A DNA stretch of 29,158 bases from contig JAAFJK010000329.1 in NCBI GenBank assembly GCA_013298105.1, positions 1 to 29,158 on the forward strand, written 5' to 3'. The notes under the pieces were generated by a model that worked only from the letters and a program-made list of their open reading frames with translations, had not been told where the DNA came from and searched no databases. This document shows, piece after piece, positions 1-29,158 of this stretch. Origin of the DNA: Cytophagales bacterium. GTDB taxonomy: Bacteria; Bacteroidota; Bacteroidia; Cytophagales; Microscillaceae. A program made the translations under genes and the position numbers. Position 1 is the first letter of the stretch, and each line of letters begins with the position of its first letter.

Positions 1-116
1 GTTTTTTCAAAAAGGGGACAAATGGCAAATGCTCCCGTTTTCGTATTTTTTTTGGTTGTCAATCCGCTCGCGGTTGGCAATCCAAAAAAAAAAAATCGCG
101 CTTGTCGCAAATTAAG

Positions 117-154
117 AAAATCGTAATTCGTAAATCTAAAATCGTAATTCGTAA
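117..154 (+). promoter_or_regulatory. Perfect 17-bp direct repeat AAAATCGTAATTCGTAA x2 (117-133 and 138-154, 21-bp period) ending 1 bp before the ATG of the Fe-S oxidoreductase. Candidate operator or response-regulator binding site
   Basis: Read directly from the sequence. A second degenerate repeat GGTTGNCAATCC x2 lies at about 52-91. Confidence 0.35.
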
Positions 155-155
155 C

Positions 156-1490
156 ATGGAATTTATACCTATCATAGCTTTTATCCTTGCCCTTGCCTGC
201 GTGGGCTACTTAGTCAGCAAACGCATCAGGCGTATCAGTGCCAATATCAAACTTGGTAAGCCCTTCGCGCCTGTAGGCAGGCAAGGCGAAAGGCTGAAGA
301 CTATGTTATTGGTGGCTTTTGGACAAGGCAAAATGTTTCATAAGCCCTTGGTGGGTTTGTTGCATTTTGTGATTTATGCGGGTTTTCTGCTCGTCAATGT
401 AGAAGTGCTGGAGATAATCATTGACGGCATTACGGGACAACACCGCATATTTAGCCAATTCTTGCCTACCTCGTTTTACAATTTCTTGATAGGCTTTTTT
501 GAATTTTTGGCAGTCAGTGTCATAGCGGTTTGCGTGATATTCCTTTGGAGGCGCAATATCCAAAAAGTAGCGCGTTTCCAAAAAGCTGAAATCAAAGGCT
601 GGGCGCGTCTTGATGCCAATTTGATACTTGTGTTTGAGATAGTGTTGATGTTTGCTATTTTGACTATGAATGCTACAGACAGCATTTTGCAGGCAAGGCA
701 CGTACACCATTATCCAAATGTAGGCGAAAAGTTTTTATTCAGCCAATTCTTAATCCCTATTTTTCAAGGCATTGAGAACAATACTGTCCTGACAGTCATT
801 GAGCGTACTGCGTGGTGGTTGCATATCTTAGGCATCATGGGATTTGCGTTGTATGTTACATACTCGAAGCATTTGCATATTTTCCTTGCCTTCCCAAATA
901 CCTACTTCTCGAACTTGGAAGCAAAGGGCAAGTTCAAAAATAATGCCATTGTAACACGCGAAGTTAATCTGGCACTTGGACTGATACAAGATGATGGCGT
1001 AGCCTCTGAAGTAACCCGCTTTGGGGCAAAAGATGCCACCGACCTTACATGGAAAAATCTCATGGACGCATACTCTTGTACCGAATGTGGACGTTGTACG
1101 GCTTCTTGTCCCGCGAATTTGACAGGCAAAAAACTCTCTCCACGCAAAGTCATGATGGATACGCGCGACCGCATAGACGAGATAGGACGCTATCTGGAGA
1201 GTGGGAAATCGCTTGCTGACGCACTCGCGGCTGGAAATCCACTCTATTCTGAACAATATACCTCCAAAGAAGAACTCATGGCTTGCACTACTTGCAATGC
1301 GTGTGTAGAGGCTTGTCCTATCAATATCGACCCGCTTAGTATCATTATCCAAATGCGCCAATATATCGCTATGGAAGAATCTGCCACGCCTCCCGCATGG
1401 ACTGCTATGCTCCAAAACATAGAAACGAGTTTTTCTCCTTGGAAATTCGCACCTACAGATAGATTCAACTGGGCAAATGATTTGAAATAG
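156..1490 (+). CDS. Membrane-anchored Fe-S oxidoreductase with two 4Fe-4S ferredoxin-type cysteine motifs (GlpC / heterodisulfide-reductase-like). The upstream ORF extension from 102 is probably not translated
   Basis: Long ORF. Hydrophobic N-terminal segments (MEFIPIIAFILALACVGYLV, FVIYAGFLLVNV, FLAVSVIAVCVIFLW and others). Two CxxCxxCxxxCP motifs (CTECGRCTASCP, CTTCNACVEACP). ATG at 156 sits directly after a 17-bp direct repeat. Confidence 0.7.
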   Translation: MEFIPIIAFILALACVGYLVSKRIRRISANIKLGKPFAPVGRQGERLKTMLLVAFGQGKMFHKPLVGLLHFVIYAGFLLVNVEVLEIIIDGITGQHRIFSQFLPTSFYNFLIGFFEFLAVSVIAVCVIFLWRRNIQKVARFQKAEIKGWARLDANLILVFEIVLMFAILTMNATDSILQARHVHHYPNVGEKFLFSQFLIPIFQGIENNTVLTVIERTAWWLHILGIMGFALYVTYSKHLHIFLAFPNTYFSNLEAKGKFKNNAIVTREVNLALGLIQDDGVASEVTRFGAKDATDLTWKNLMDAYSCTECGRCTASCPANLTGKKLSPRKVMMDTRDRIDEIGRYLESGKSLADALAAGNPLYSEQYTSKEELMACTTCNACVEACPINIDPLSIIIQMRQYIAMEESATPPAWTAMLQNIETSFSPWKFAPTDRFNWANDLK

Positions 1491-1531
1491 CAGTTGGGCA
1501 GGCAAGGTATTTCCCTTGCCTGCCCAACTGC
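1490..1531. terminator. Perfect 18-bp-stem palindrome GCAGTTGGGCAGGCAAGG-tatttc-CCTTGCCTGCCCAACTGC starting at the stop codon of the Fe-S oxidoreductase
   Basis: Inverted repeat read from the sequence. It contains the genome-wide GGCAGGCAAGG motif. Confidence 0.6.
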
Positions 1532-1536
1532 TATGC

Positions 1537-1570
1537 GGGTAGGCAAGGAAGTTACAAACCTTGCCTACCC
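1537..1570. terminator. Second hairpin GGGTAGGCAAGG-aagttacaaa-CCTTGCCTACCC
   Basis: 12-bp perfect inverted repeat built from the T-variant of the same motif. Confidence 0.5.
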
Positions 1571-27399: not shown

Positions 27400-27995
27400 T
27401 GTATTGGCAAGCCTTTTATTGATGATGTAAGATTATTTAACTTTTCTTGAAGTATCATATCTTGTGTATGTTGTATTCTTTGGGCTTGTGCTGAAAGTTC
27501 TTTCTGCTCAAGTGCTGATAGCCTACTTGAATTGATAGATTGATACATTTTTTGTTTTACATATTCTGAAGTAGGTGGAAGAATATAATGTACTTGTGTA
27601 GCATATTCTAATAAACTGCGTTGCACATATCGTGGCAATTCAGAAAAATATTTACCGTCAAACTCTGTAGGCAAAAAGTTCAAGTTTTGTAGATTGTAAG
27701 CATTATTTTTGACAAATTGCCCCAAAGCCTCTAATCGTTCCAAACCATCAATTATTGTCCATTCCCAATGATTTGATGATTGTAAGTCAAAGTAAAAAAA
27801 GGGTGTTGGGTGCTTGAGTATAAGAGATTCAATATATTGGCTCTTTGTGGTTGTATCCCAAACAGTTTTTTCTGAATACCATGCAGCGTTATTATTTCTG
27901 TATTGTTGCCTTATTTGGTTATGATTGAATTTGACAACAAGTTGTTCCAAAGAAATAACGTTGTATTTTATGTTAATTTTTGACAAATCTACCAT
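27396..27995 (-). CDS. DUF262 (ParB/GmrSD N-terminal domain)-like protein
   Basis: WTIIDGLERLEAL matches the DUF262 (I/V)DGQQRL signature. YIESLILKHPTPFFYF matches the upstream hydrophobic box. 199 aa with no DUF1524/HNH half. Confidence 0.55.
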   Translation of the reverse strand: MVDLSKINIKYNVISLEQLVVKFNHNQIRQQYRNNNAAWYSEKTVWDTTTKSQYIESLILKHPTPFFYFDLQSSNHWEWTIIDGLERLEALGQFVKNNAYNLQNLNFLPTEFDGKYFSELPRYVQRSLLEYATQVHYILPPTSEYVKQKMYQSINSSRLSALEQKELSAQAQRIQHTQDMILQEKLNNLTSSIKGLPIQ

Positions 27996-28065
27996 ACATT
28001 TACTTGGATTAGTTATGCAAAAGTATAATTATATAATCAAATTTGCAAATATAAAAATCAAAAAT

Positions 28066-28098
28066 CCTTGCCTGCCCACACAGCGCGGGCAGGCAAGG
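28066..28098. terminator. Perfect palindrome CCTTGCCTGCCCACACAGCGCGGGCAGGCAAGG flanked by A5 and T5. It is a bidirectional terminator and the right boundary of island 2
   Basis: Read from the sequence. Confidence 0.65.
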
Positions 28099-28105
28099 TT
28101 TTTAC

Positions 28106-29128
28106 TTATTCCATTTTGATAACCTCCAAATAATCCAACACAGCGCGGTTCACTTCTACATTCATGTTATGATTCCACTCTTCAAAAACCAAGCGAATTT
28201 TGTTCTCGCCTGCCTGAAGATTTACCTGATAGCCATTCGAAAAGCCCCAATCAGACCATTCATTCGTACCACGTTGAGGGAAAACCATTGCACCTTTGTA
28301 TGCGCTATTTACATAGAGGCTTCTGAGTGCGCAAGCATTGTCTGTATTCCACGCGCCACTGCCATTCGCATAACGGAAACGGACATAATACTTGCCTGCC
28401 TCGCTCACTGCTACAGGTATTTCGATGGATTTGTTTTCAGTCGTAGAAATTTCTATAAAACCTGCTCCTGTATAGTTCGTATAGGCAAGACGTGAGGCAG
28501 GCAAGATAGACTCGAGTTGGATTTGTTGGGCGTAGCTGATAGTATTTTGTTTGGGTTCTTCGAGTATGAATTCCTTTTTATGCTTTTTTTCAGGCTCAAG
28601 CGTAATGGTAGGAACTTCTACCATTTTCTCAGTCAAAATAGGGGCGGATTCTATGGTTTTAGACTTATTCGCTGATACTACAATGGGCTGGGGAACATAT
28701 AAAACGCGATTGCTGGGAAAACTCTTAAACGAAACTTCCTCTTTGATAGGCAATACTTGATAAAACACGCCTCCTTTGAGTGTATTGACAGGTATTTCGT
28801 AAAAAGTATTTTCTGTTTGTTCCCCATGAAAGCTATTTTCTATGATAAGATATTTTTTCGCGCCTTCTATGGGTTTCCATTCTAAACGGTTGCCTACCAA
28901 TTTGATTTCAGGCGTAGCCAATGAAAACTCATTTTTTACCAAATTGATGTTGTCCTTATCAAAACTTTCATTGTCCATTTCAATCTCGATGGTGTGTTTG
29001 CCTACCAAGTCCACAGGTAAGAAAAAGTCCTTTTTCTTTTTACCATCTATTTTGAAAGATTTGATGTTTTTGCCAAAACCCGTAACAGTAATATCTAAAG
29101 TGGCTTGTCTGTATTTGAAATTGCTCAA
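28106..29128 (-). CDS. C-terminal part of a secreted protein ending in a CBM-like beta-sandwich (carbohydrate-binding-module-like). The ORF probably continues beyond the window end
   Basis: C-terminal WSDWGFSNGYQVNLQAGENKIRLVFEEW and WNTDNACALRSLYVNSAYKG are typical of CBM6/35-like folds. The first Met is at 29128, 30 nt from the window edge. Confidence 0.45.
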   Translation of the reverse strand: MSNFKYRQATLDITVTGFGKNIKSFKIDGKKKKDFFLPVDLVGKHTIEIEMDNESFDKDNINLVKNEFSLATPEIKLVGNRLEWKPIEGAKKYLIIENSFHGEQTENTFYEIPVNTLKGGVFYQVLPIKEEVSFKSFPSNRVLYVPQPIVVSANKSKTIESAPILTEKMVEVPTITLEPEKKHKKEFILEEPKQNTISYAQQIQLESILPASRLAYTNYTGAGFIEISTTENKSIEIPVAVSEAGKYYVRFRYANGSGAWNTDNACALRSLYVNSAYKGAMVFPQRGTNEWSDWGFSNGYQVNLQAGENKIRLVFEEWNHNMNVEVNRAVLDYLEVIKME

Positions 29129-29158
29129 AGTGCGCTTGCCTGCATATACTTTCGGAAT

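Follow-up and report, generated by a model that had tools for sequence, protein, structure and literature searches.

The window analysed here, a 29,158-nt contig of a Cytophagales bacterium, carries many copies of a short word, GGYAGGCAAGG, and we asked what kind of signal this word represents and what retains it in the genome. Our tentative answer, in which we place a little less than even confidence, is that GGYAGGCAAGG is a clade-specific hyperabundant word, read as double-stranded DNA in either orientation and retained most likely through biased DNA uptake. All statistics derive from the window of about 29 kb and about 250 kb from relatives, which is short of whole genomes and of the replichore scale.

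Counts on both strands of the 29-kb window gave 27 exact matches to GGYAGGCAAGG against 0.02 expected from dinucleotide shuffles, 46 copies against 0.60 when up to one mismatch was allowed, and 39 copies of AGGCAAGG against 0.91. The 45-50 occurrences of the original prediction agree with the one-mismatch count, while its chance expectation of about 0.2 has to be lowered to about 0.02 for the 11-mer. The observed/expected ratio in the window was far from 1 and fell in a graded manner, being 162, 11, 1.9 and 1.0 at 0, 1, 2 and 3 mismatches, as reported for DUES (PMC1939737). The 7-mer core AGGCAAG occurred 65 times and ranked first among the 7-mers that are not A-rich. The exact 11-mer reached about 0.9/kb across the window and about 1.2/kb with two AT-rich islands left out. 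These densities fall within the range of the uptake sequences of Neisseriaceae (DUS) and Pasteurellaceae (USS). Spacing of the cores was random (CV 1.11) with no regular period. The word is non-palindromic and its sole degenerate position is C/T, with C:T ratios of 29:21 in the window and 46:65 in PH2015_13D.

Most cores (53 of 65, 82%) were single copies inside ORFs. One-mismatch copies lie in a 243-aa hypothetical gene (2153-2163, - strand, antisense, L-P-T), in the cyclase gene (5278-5288, -, antisense, L-P-T), in a 216-aa gene (22186-22196, -, sense, E-G-K) and twice in a 340-aa gene (28390-28400, -, sense, A-G-K; 28496-28506, +, antisense, L-P-A). Exact 11-mers were found in the adenylate cyclase gene (5516-5526, +, sense, A-G-K), a 431-aa hypothetical gene (16810-16820, +, sense, A-G-K) and the DegT aminotransferase gene (21042-21052, -, antisense, L-P-A). 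A 706-aa hypothetical gene carries two exact copies (14830-14840, V-G-K; 15535-15545, A-G-K; both -, sense) and one-mismatch copies at 14335-14345 (-, sense, A-G-K), 14587-14597 (-, sense, V-G-K) and 16033-16043 (+, antisense, L-A-Y). The TetR gene carries an exact copy (21461-21471, +, sense, A-G-K), a one-mismatch copy (21657-21667, +, sense, R-Q-G) and, in its C-terminal part, three overlapping 11-mers at 21766-21794 (-, antisense, TLPTLPALPAT), a tandem repeat of 9 nt x 3.2. Copies had been proposed inside the kinase, cyclase, aminotransferase and TetR genes and were located in all of them, and the peptides quoted as examples were recovered as VGRQGER at 279, LALACVG at 192 and the TetR tandem.

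The cores were oriented 28 sense and 25 antisense relative to the genes and occupied five of the six reading frames ([AV]GK, LP[AT], LA[YC], RQG and QA), so that a single peptide motif in one frame does not explain them. Frame use ranked by the tolerability of the encoded peptide; the P-C-L frame was never used among the intragenic cores of the window, and the frame with a potential TAG reading contained only the C variant. A by-product of amino-acid or codon usage, for example of a common peptide motif, or of chance, might be suspected from the dominance of [AV]GK and LP[AT] (34 of 53 intragenic cores). Shuffles keeping proteins and codon usage, however, gave 6.9, 1.9 and 0.26 copies of the 7-, 9- and 11-mer (maxima 15, 7 and 2) against 53, 38 and 18 observed, an excess of 8- to 70-fold. 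Besides the five frames and both strands in use, outgroup orthologs without the word encode the same or similar proteins. The shuffles and the outgroup orthologs together refute this explanation, whose probability we consider next to nil. The word is a DNA-level signal and not a protein motif, as had been predicted.

On the two strands of the window the 65 cores were distributed 29:36, and a skew of 75% was rejected (P = 4.5e-4). The strand test suggested with the original prediction gave near symmetry in the loci of relatives as well (26:21 in L085, 33:39 in L087, 17:11 in L089), while the L097 locus was uneven at 20:10. These counts bear on the possibility that the word is the binding site of a chromosome-handling protein, either a Chi-like stop for a RecBCD/AddAB-type nuclease that marks self DNA or a nucleoid protein site, with selection keeping each copy. 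Like Chi and the FtsK-orienting KOPS, which are recognised on the resident chromosome, it is a short, over-represented, non-palindromic word; its density, its sharp core and its absence from foreign DNA would suit a self-marker, and it can be read on double-stranded DNA in either orientation. Signals of the Chi/KOPS type, however, are polar and co-oriented with replication, unlike the word in the four contiguous loci of the window, L085, L087 and L089. Chi and KOPS are also several-fold rarer; the Chi frequency of Escherichia coli is roughly one per 5 kb, against about 1-2/kb here. Per-site selection would be weak over thousands of sites, amino-acid replacements in conserved enzymes are hard to explain by it, and the spacing is random. 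We regard this possibility as improbable.

None of the 65 cores, on either strand of the window, fell within 9621-14322 or 25416-28065. These two largest motif-free gaps are the two AT-rich islands (both GC 0.31), with P = 6.5e-4 and 4e-3 under uniform placement and a joint P of about 2e-8 for both being core-free, in agreement with the predicted absence from both. Island 1 contains small ORFs and, at 10091-12808, the gene of a fused DNA methyltransferase of 905 aa, and the Nsn operon of island 2 encodes NsnC-, NsnB- and NsnA-like defence proteins. An older, paralogous NsnB/C pair (17736-19827) carries six cores. Its copies of the 11-mer comprise a one-mismatch copy overlapping the P-loop GxGKS (17861-17871, +, sense, V-G-K) and an exact copy (18734-18744, +, sense, A-G-K) in the resident NsnB-like ATPase gene, and an exact copy (19424-19434, -, antisense, L-P-A) and a one-mismatch copy (19683-19693, +, sense, V-G-K) in the resident NsnC-like gene. 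DNA of recent arrival thus carries none of the word, which bears out its proposed use as an internal marker of foreign DNA.

Comparison of orthologs indicated how the sites arise. The Fe-S protein gene contains 4-6 cores in clade members against 0-1 in outgroups, and some site positions are common to lineages while others are lineage-specific. In the window it carries exact GGCAGGCAAGG at 276-286 (+, sense), encoding G-R-Q-G (VGRQGER) where outgroups encode D-N-P-S. Its one-mismatch copies are CGCAGGCAAGG at 191-201 (-, antisense, L-A-C) and those at 460-470 (-, antisense, L-P-T; site common to the L087 and L089 orthologs), 688-698 (+, sense, Q-A-R; site common to the L085 ortholog) and 884-894 (-, antisense, L-A-F; a synonymous codon choice, also in L085 and L087). 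The sites in this gene arise synonymously (e.g. TTG GCG TTT -> CTT GCC TTC) and by replacement (DNPS -> GRQG). The histidine kinase gene carries 14 cores against 5 in its ortholog, with 3 in common. Its one-mismatch copies at 6956-6966 and 6998-7008 (-, sense, V-G-K) are both kept in the L097 ortholog, and its exact copies lie at 7790-7800 (-, sense, V-G-K), 8351-8361 (+, antisense, L-A-Y), 8451-8461 (+, antisense, L-P-T), 9438-9448 (+, antisense, L-P-T), 9522-9532 (-, sense, Q-A-R) and 9617-9627 (+, antisense, L-A-C). At the alignment position of 8451-8461 the L097 ortholog has the motif in reversed orientation. The copy at 9617-9627 is the last ahead of island 1, and that at 14335-14345 is among the earliest past it (7-mer core at 14323). 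Counted from the ortholog listing, amino-acid identity was about 52% at the kinase-gene sites against about 70% elsewhere, the sites thus lying in less conserved stretches. No insertions were found at sites in the Fe-S and kinase ortholog alignments, only substitutions within conserved codons. Near-identical strain pairs showed no differences over 657 motif columns, where we estimate that about 5.1 would be expected from the background rate of each pair (Poisson P about 0.006). Ordinary point mutation thus keeps creating the word in the resident genome, where it is preferentially retained even though codon choice becomes unusual and some amino acids change.

Among relatives, (G)GYAGGCAAG was equally abundant in five or more uncultured lineages, at 1.5-3.9 cores/kb, a range covering the window, L085/L097, L087 (GCA_004292795.1), L089, L095 and MAG GFS_3895. 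The motif-bearing lineages are those with an Fe-S protein at least 84% identical, plus MAG GFS_3895. Lineages at 73%, 67%, 65% and 64% Fe-S protein identity had just 0-0.4 cores/kb, and at this density the word was absent, among the relatives compared, from the 73% and 67% lineages, Eisenibacter and Microscilla. The invariant AGGCAAG core with the upstream G and Y is common to the clade, while the outer G's occur in the window lineage only, and the clade-wide form is gGYAGGCAAG. No conservation beyond about 11 nt was found around intragenic copies. The comparison with related genomes thus revealed clade restriction, dialect-like flanks and point-mutation origin, which are hallmarks of DUS/USS.

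The remaining 12 of the 65 cores lie between genes, and by our estimate this proportion clearly exceeds the one that intergenic DNA makes up of the non-island sequence; an intergenic copy with one mismatch lies at 4128-4138 (+). Ten of the 12 form five inverted pairs, each a hairpin, three of them directly at gene 3' ends. All five palindromes that had been predicted as terminator-like are present, and each folds much more stably than shuffled sequence (z = -5.7 to -11.7). Hairpin A (1487-1534), past the stop of the Fe-S gene, has a 21-bp stem with inverted 11-mers at 1497-1507 (+) and 1514-1524 (-), and hairpin B (1537-1570) has a 12-bp stem with 11-mers at 1538-1548 (+) and 1559-1569 (-). 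Hairpin C (22761-22813), directly past a vault-protein-like gene on the - strand, consists of an A-run, CCTTGCCTACC ... GGCAGGCAAGG and a T-run; it is bidirectional terminator-like, and its - strand RNA pairs fully via a G.U pair. Hairpins D (25384-25415) and E (28066-28098) lie at the left and right edges of island 2 and are the two copies, 31/32 identical, of a 32-bp direct repeat; E, a 15-bp stem followed by a T-run, was the top terminator-like hit of the window scan. In scarce intergenic space the hairpins of inverted pairs, often flanked by A/T-runs, may double as transcription terminators; paired DUS at terminators have been described (PMC3630211).

The hairpins could instead be the functional unit, a REP/MITE-like mobile or terminator element of which the intragenic copies are decayed fragments or by-products. 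The five strong hairpins made of the word do resemble REP-type units, one is duplicated around island 2, and Gemmata and Amycolatopsis have unrelated REP-like palindromes with the same decamer. Unlike REPs, which are extragenic and 20-40 nt long, 82% of the cores are isolated 9-11-nt copies within ORFs, made by substitution. The ortholog alignments without insertions largely refute this explanation, and conservation ends at about 11 nt around intragenic copies, while good terminators at 13968-14004 and 17716-17743 do without the word. We consider it highly unlikely.

The original prediction had likened the pattern to DNA uptake sequences or highly iterated palindromes. All parts of this reading that could be checked were borne out. 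Orientation, frames, inverted pairs and clade limits support the likeness to uptake sequences statistically; being non-palindromic, the word is nearer in form to DUS/USS than to HIP1. The DUS of Neisseriaceae (GCCGTCTGAA and dialects) and the USS of Pasteurellaceae (AAGTGCGGT core) are likewise non-palindromic 9-12-mers at about 1/kb, with an invariant core and weaker flanks, balanced orientations, mostly intragenic location, frame preference by peptide tolerance, intergenic enrichment with inverted pairs as terminator hairpins (PMC1939737, PMC3630211), an excess of one-mismatch forms, lineage-specific dialects, rarity in recently acquired DNA and gain of sites through point mutation. The present word differs in its occurrence in Bacteroidota (order Cytophagales), its unrelated sequence, an internal position that is freely C or T and being known here from sequence statistics; no equivalent of ComP, the minor-pilin receptor of Neisseria, is known here.

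A serious rival, although we judge it unlikely, is an intracellular drive like that of HIP1 (GCGATCGC) of cyanobacteria, in which the word or part of it would be the site of a resident methyltransferase and linked repair of the very-short-patch type or biased gene conversion would restore or create sites, which would build up without uptake. HIP1 too is hyperabundant in genes in many frames, lineage-restricted, missing from foreign DNA, conserved between strains and kept by selection or drive (PMC5861425, PMC4390886), and the C/T position fits deamination of a methylated C. HIP1, however, is perfectly palindromic, includes sites for methyltransferases and ranges over a phylum; the present word is asymmetric, unlike all described HIPs, has no known cognate methylase and is restricted to a narrow clade of roughly genus to family level. 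Methyltransferase-linked repair is known from short sites of 4-6 bp, against 9-11 bp here. The one methyltransferase of the window lies inside the recently acquired, motif-free island and therefore cannot be the clade-wide agent. HIP1 long had no known function and is now suspected of a role in transformation (PMC5861425, PMC4390886, 10.64898/2026.06.24.733823); this rival and uptake may therefore overlap.

The pattern is best read as an orientation-blind, genome-wide fixation bias. Any other fixation bias that is sequence-specific and blind to orientation would also yield all measured properties, and by our comparison the likeness to Neisseria and Haemophilus uptake sequences is statistical. 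Most probably the word serves DNA uptake or self-recognition, with its inverted pairs co-opted as terminators. We infer that the retention bias would come from sequence-biased uptake of relatives' DNA followed by homologous recombination, the molecular drive described for Neisseriaceae DUS and Pasteurellaceae USS. To our knowledge, uptake sequences are documented in two proteobacterial families only and have not been described from Bacteroidota, and their receptor ComP is a type IV pilin, part of a system that is not known to be typical of this phylum. Natural competence does occur in Bacteroidota, and Riemerella columbina favours its own DNA, with no convincing uptake sequence found (PMC7965970). 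If the uptake reading is true, the word tags the clade's own DNA.

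Analysis of the window revealed 27 exact copies of the 11-mer GGYAGGCAAGG (hereafter the word) on both strands, against 0.02 expected from dinucleotide-preserving shuffles of the 29,158 bp, and 46 copies with at most one mismatch, against 0.60 expected. The original prediction of about 45-50 copies agrees with the latter count, and its examples, their gene locations and its five palindromes were all present, but its chance expectation of 0.2 has to be lowered to about 0.02 for the 11-mer. The heptamer core AGGCAAG occurred 65 times and was the top 7-mer of the window once the A-rich ones were set aside; the 9-mer form was present in 50 copies and the octamer AGGCAAGG in 39 (0.91 expected). 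Leave-one-out counts in the window indicated that AGGCAAG is near-invariant and is preceded upstream by Y (C in 29 copies, T in 21) and then by G, and that the window lineage carries one extra G on each flank of the word. The observed to expected ratio fell from 162 for exact copies to 11, 1.9 and 1.0 for one, two and three mismatches. Outside the two AT-rich islands, and close pairs excepted, the cores were randomly spaced (CV 1.11). Word densities throughout are local values, taken from the window and from loci fetched from relatives.

Gene assignment relied on ORFs and Pfam matches; 53 of the 65 cores (82%) lay inside ORFs and 12 were intergenic. The cores were distributed 29:36 over the (+) and (-) strands, and relative to gene direction 28 were sense and 25 antisense. 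This split rejected a Chi-like strand skew of 75% (P = 4.5e-4). Contiguous loci of relatives were likewise balanced (26:21 in L085, 33:39 in L087 from GCA_004292795.1 and 17:11 in L089), and the 20:10 split of L097 was not significant. The strand test suggested in the original prediction thus gave a locally symmetric distribution, while Chi and KOPS motifs are strongly skewed with replication. That the word is a Chi-like or nucleoid-protein site is accordingly improbable, since it lacks polarity and its density also speaks against such a role.

Five of the six reading frames were used by the intragenic cores. The most frequent was GYA GGC AAG, read as [AV]-G-K (19 cores), followed by TTG CCT RCC, L-P-[AT] (15 cores), CTT GCC TRC, L-A-[YC] (10 cores), AGG CAA GG, R-Q-G (5 cores) and CAG GCA AG, Q-A-R/S (4 cores), and no core was read as CCT TGC CTR, P-C-L. 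In the frame that has Y-A-G as a codon only the C variant was found, TAG thereby being avoided. A DNA-level pressure filtered through protein tolerance would give such a ranking. A single protein motif repeated in one frame, which the original prediction had named as the finding that would overturn it, does not account for copies in five frames and on both strands. When synonymous codons were shuffled within each gene, every protein and the per-gene codon usage being kept, the 7-, 9- and 11-mer were expected 6.9, 1.9 and 0.26 times, against 53, 38 and 18 copies observed; codon-order shuffles gave 3.2, 0.46 and 0.03. Because the observed counts far exceed the synonymous shuffles, codon choice is strongly bent toward the word; word-compatible peptides are also about twofold enriched in the proteins themselves. 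Coding bias or chance, as an explanation of the word, is refuted by these shuffles and retains next to no probability.

The Fe-S protein, which was also used to rank relatives, placed the window in Cytophagales near Microscillaceae (65% identity to Eisenibacter elegans, 64% to Microscilla marina), its closest relatives being metagenomic proteins 82-91% identical. Near-identical window DNA (99.9%) was found only in the Logan assembly of SRR9948921 (L084), and exact-sequence look-ups of the aminotransferase and the vault-like protein gave no match. When one genome of each GTDB species was scanned for the motif pattern, many matches came from two MAGs, Cytophagales bacterium GFS_3895 and Bacteroidetes bacterium PH2015_13D_43_10, and AGGCAAG was the top 7-mer in the loci of both with the selecting match masked (1.75/kb and 3.3/kb, respectively). 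No homologous genes were shared between the fetched GFS_3895 loci and the window, so that this MAG was not placed relative to the window.

The clade boundary was located by comparing the Fe-S locus across relatives of graded Fe-S protein identity. Core densities were 3.25/kb in L095 (91% identity), 2.2/kb in L085 (85-86%), 3.4/kb in L087, which is the PH2015 MAG (85%), and 1.8/kb in L089 (84-85%), while they were 0.3/kb in L236 (73%), 0.09/kb and 0/kb in L091 and L093 (both 67%), 0.23/kb in the Eisenibacter locus L092 (65%) and 0.42/kb in the Microscilla locus L094 (64%). L097, which shares its source metagenome with L085, had 1.5/kb, and across five related lineages the density was 1.5-3.9/kb. 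The 9-mer had zero copies in any fetched locus below 84% Fe-S identity. The comparison with related genomes proposed in the original prediction thus showed the word to be abundant at 84% Fe-S identity or more and in GFS_3895, and absent at 73, 67, 65 and 64%. The form gGYAGGCAAG was common to all word-bearing lineages and the outer G's were restricted to the window lineage, a shared core with lineage-specific flanks that appears dialect-like. Two viral-contig scans yielded no phage contig with high word density, their candidates L172 and L108 being rejected on inspection. The genes neighbouring the Fe-S and kinase genes were arranged in a wholly different order in the window and in L085, L087, L089, L095 and L097, which indicates very fast rearrangement in the clade, since the proteins are 84-91% (Fe-S) or 70% (kinase) identical. 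At 1184-1291 of L085, a heptamer is repeated perfectly in tandem, (TATGTAA) x 15.4, and this array overlaps a predicted 88-aa gene.

Three other words were considered as sister dialects and rejected. TGATAATCA was present on both strands in 14 copies in 21 kb of L091 (JGI 3300043184, the 67% lineage) and in 5 copies in L092; according to the gene table its copies seem mostly intergenic and may be regulatory, and it resembles a Fur-box-like or promoter-associated word and not a genome-wide drive. TGCAAGCG in L093 (GCA_004293265.1, 30% GC) is part of an intergenic palindromic repeat, TGCAAGCGTGGACGCTTGCA, found in several copies (9356-9420, 10405-10455), which is REP-like and unrelated to GGYAGGCAAGG. 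In the 3 kb sampled from L236, CCAAAAGC was confined to a single strand, which agrees with an ordinary bias of codons or peptides. None of the three matches the GGYAGGCAAGG phenomenon. The scan matches from Gemmata and other Planctomycetota and from Amycolatopsis were also discarded, being unrelated long REP-like palindromes that hold the decamer in loci not enriched in the word. Palindromes of the type CTTGCCTGCC...GGCAGGCAAG were seen in Gemmata and Gemmataceae (L014, L015, L040, L041, L044, L050, L054, L072, L073 and L077; for example GGTGGGGCAGGCATTCTTGCCTGCC-loop-GGCAGGCAAGAATGCCTGCCCCACC in Gemmata) and in Amycolatopsis (L008, L038, L043, L053 and L066).

Codon alignment of eight Fe-S orthologs showed 4-6 cores in clade members and 0-1 in outgroups, with zero indels at the word sites, some of which were common to several lineages and others private. 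Sites were gained synonymously (IFLAFPN is encoded with CTT GCC TTC in the clade and with TTG GCG TTT in an outgroup) and also with protein change (outgroup TDNPSER to window VGRQGER, and GTHR to GKHR). The window kinase gene, 69% identical in nucleotides to its L097 ortholog, carried 14 cores and the ortholog 5; 3 were shared, and this conservation (3/14) was not significant against a 14% background for 7-mers. At 8451-8461 (alignment nt 1216-1217) the two kinase genes carried the word in opposite orientations (PPTLPTQ vs PKQARLK), which may mean that each genome gained the word separately in an unconstrained linker or that the segment was locally inverted, and another site was displaced by five codons. 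Since the 7-residue windows around the window kinase sites were, as counted from the alignment, about 52% identical to the L097 ortholog, against 70% for the whole protein, sites accumulate in less constrained protein stretches. Near-identical strain pairs showed 0 differences in 657 motif columns, where about 5.1 were expected as estimated from per-pair background rates (Poisson P ~0.006). Taken together, the ortholog alignments and strain pairs show that copies keep arising by point mutation, are preferentially retained and turn over, and they rule out insertion of a mobile element. REP, BIME and MITE sequences are extragenic imperfect palindromes of 20-40 nt, whereas 82% of the cores stand isolated in ORFs, and intragenic copies had neither flanking conservation nor indels relative to orthologs. 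The likeness is limited to five hairpins, and a REP/MITE origin, contradicted by the alignments, is very improbable.

Ten of the 12 intergenic cores formed these hairpins as five inverted pairs, A (1487-1534), B (1537-1570), C (22761-22813), D (25384-25415) and E (28066-28098), with fold z-scores of -5.7 to -11.7 against shuffles. Hairpins A and B come after the stop of the Fe-S gene, D comes after the NsnC-like gene, and C and E lie directly 3' of the vault-protein-like gene and of a 340-aa gene, respectively. Hairpins C and E had an A-run on one flank and a T-run on the other, and E was the top terminator-like match of a consensus scan. Where the arms were unequal at the Y position (22769-22804, 25384-25415), the mismatch was G.U on the transcribed (-) strand and A.C on the opposite strand, which hints at RNA-level selection in addition to the DNA word. 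The word cannot simply be equated with the organism's terminator sequence, since other good terminators (13968-14004, 17716-17743) were without it. No Rfam family or tRNA was found in the window by either scan. The 826-aa vault-like protein (22812-25292, (-) strand) matched the shoulder and repeat domains of the major vault protein (PF11978, PF17795) and is a homologue, in a bacterium, of the shell protein of eukaryotic vaults.

The two largest core-free gaps, 9621-14322 (island 1) and 25416-28065 (island 2), both with a GC content of 0.31, had probabilities of 6.5e-4 and 4e-3 under uniform placement, and that of no core falling in both islands was about 2e-8. The AT-rich regions claimed to be free of the word were thus confirmed, 0 of the 65 cores lying in either island, and so was the use of the word as a marker of foreign DNA; island 1 carries a 905-aa fused DNA methyltransferase and island 2 an NsnA/NsnB/NsnC-like defence operon. 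The 905-aa protein (10091-12808) has an HTH at its N-terminus, a methylase region resembling PglX, and an N6/N4 type II-like methyltransferase domain at its C-terminus; its gene contains a 51-nt internal repeat (11261, 11999) spanning the two catalytic motifs, and no restriction partner was evident in island 1. A second Nsn-like locus at 17736-19827 (an NsnB paralog and an NsnC gene), of intermediate GC, carried six cores, while the AT-rich Nsn locus at 25419-27995 carried none; the NsnB copies were 33% identical. This fits an older arrival already written over with the word, and the pair of loci provides an internal marker of how old acquired DNA is. Island 2 was flanked by a 32-bp direct repeat (25384-25415, 28067-28098; 31/32 identical, 2,683 bp apart) that is the word hairpin itself, which suggests that a terminator hairpin was duplicated when the island integrated there or recombined through it. 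Neither an integrase nor a transposase was found within island 2, and synteny gave no confirmation that the islands are insertions, because the neighbourhoods of the Fe-S and kinase genes differ in gene order even at 85% and 70% identity.

An orientation-blind, sequence-specific and clade-wide bias thus fixes the word in resident DNA, new DNA being as yet unaffected. The word shares with the DUS and USS uptake sequences a copy number of about one per kb (27 exact 11-mers in 29 kb, as a local density), an asymmetric form of 9-12 nt with a near-invariant core, weaker flanks and an excess of one-mismatch variants, no bias of strand or transcription (29:36, 28:25 and within contiguous loci), a mostly intragenic location with frame preferences, intergenic enrichment and inverted pairs at terminators, restriction to a clade with related dialects, and depletion in recently acquired DNA, both islands being core-free. 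As judged from sequence, it agrees with DUS/USS in every testable feature. No competence gene was listed in the gene tables of the fetched loci.

Tentatively, we favour as the source of the fixation bias a preferential uptake of word-bearing DNA from relatives, which would then be recombined into the genome, so that the word would accumulate by molecular drive, as modelled for DUS/USS (PMC1939737). Such a model would explain the inverted terminator pairs and the dialects in the clade, both of which are described for DUS (PMC3630211). Bacteroidota do include naturally competent bacteria, and Riemerella columbina shows a preference for DNA of its own kind, although the only words found there were A-rich (PMC7965970). 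A drive by methylation or repair, similar to HIP1, is an unlikely alternative: deamination of a methylated C would be in keeping with the free C/T position, but HIP1 is a perfect palindrome, while GGYAGGCAAGG (reverse complement CCTTGCCTRCC) is not self-complementary. Cognate orphan methyltransferases on sub-sites belong to the HIP1 pattern, and no clade-wide methylase is known here, the only methyltransferase of the window sitting in a core-free island.

Preferential uptake may be extended to a more doubtful proposal, in which the word would represent the first uptake (self-DNA recognition) system in Bacteroidota, in uncultured freshwater-biofilm Cytophagales, with a receptor unrelated to the Neisseria ComP pilin and with paired-copy hairpins that would act as terminators and, in addition, as places where incoming defence islands land or recombine. 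The latter role is suggested by the 32-bp hairpin duplicated on either side of the Nsn island. A full-text literature search by sequence found no prior description of the word in a bacterial-genome context, and topic searches found no report of an uptake sequence or hyperabundant word in Cytophagales. The word is a candidate uptake-sequence-like, hyperabundant genome-wide word in a phylum with none known.

To our knowledge, Neisseriaceae and Pasteurellaceae are the only families in which sequence-specific DNA uptake is established, and how hyperabundant words such as HIP1 originate has been under debate for decades. In practical use, the word sharply marks resident against recently acquired DNA and is of use in metagenome binning and host assignment. 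If the uptake reading is true, a third case would be added, independent of the others, in a further phylum and with a word and dialects of its own, and it would show that genome-wide word drives arise repeatedly; natural transformation would be predicted in uncultured Cytophagales, and the word-bearing clade set against its word-free sisters would offer a comparative handle for the recognition protein.
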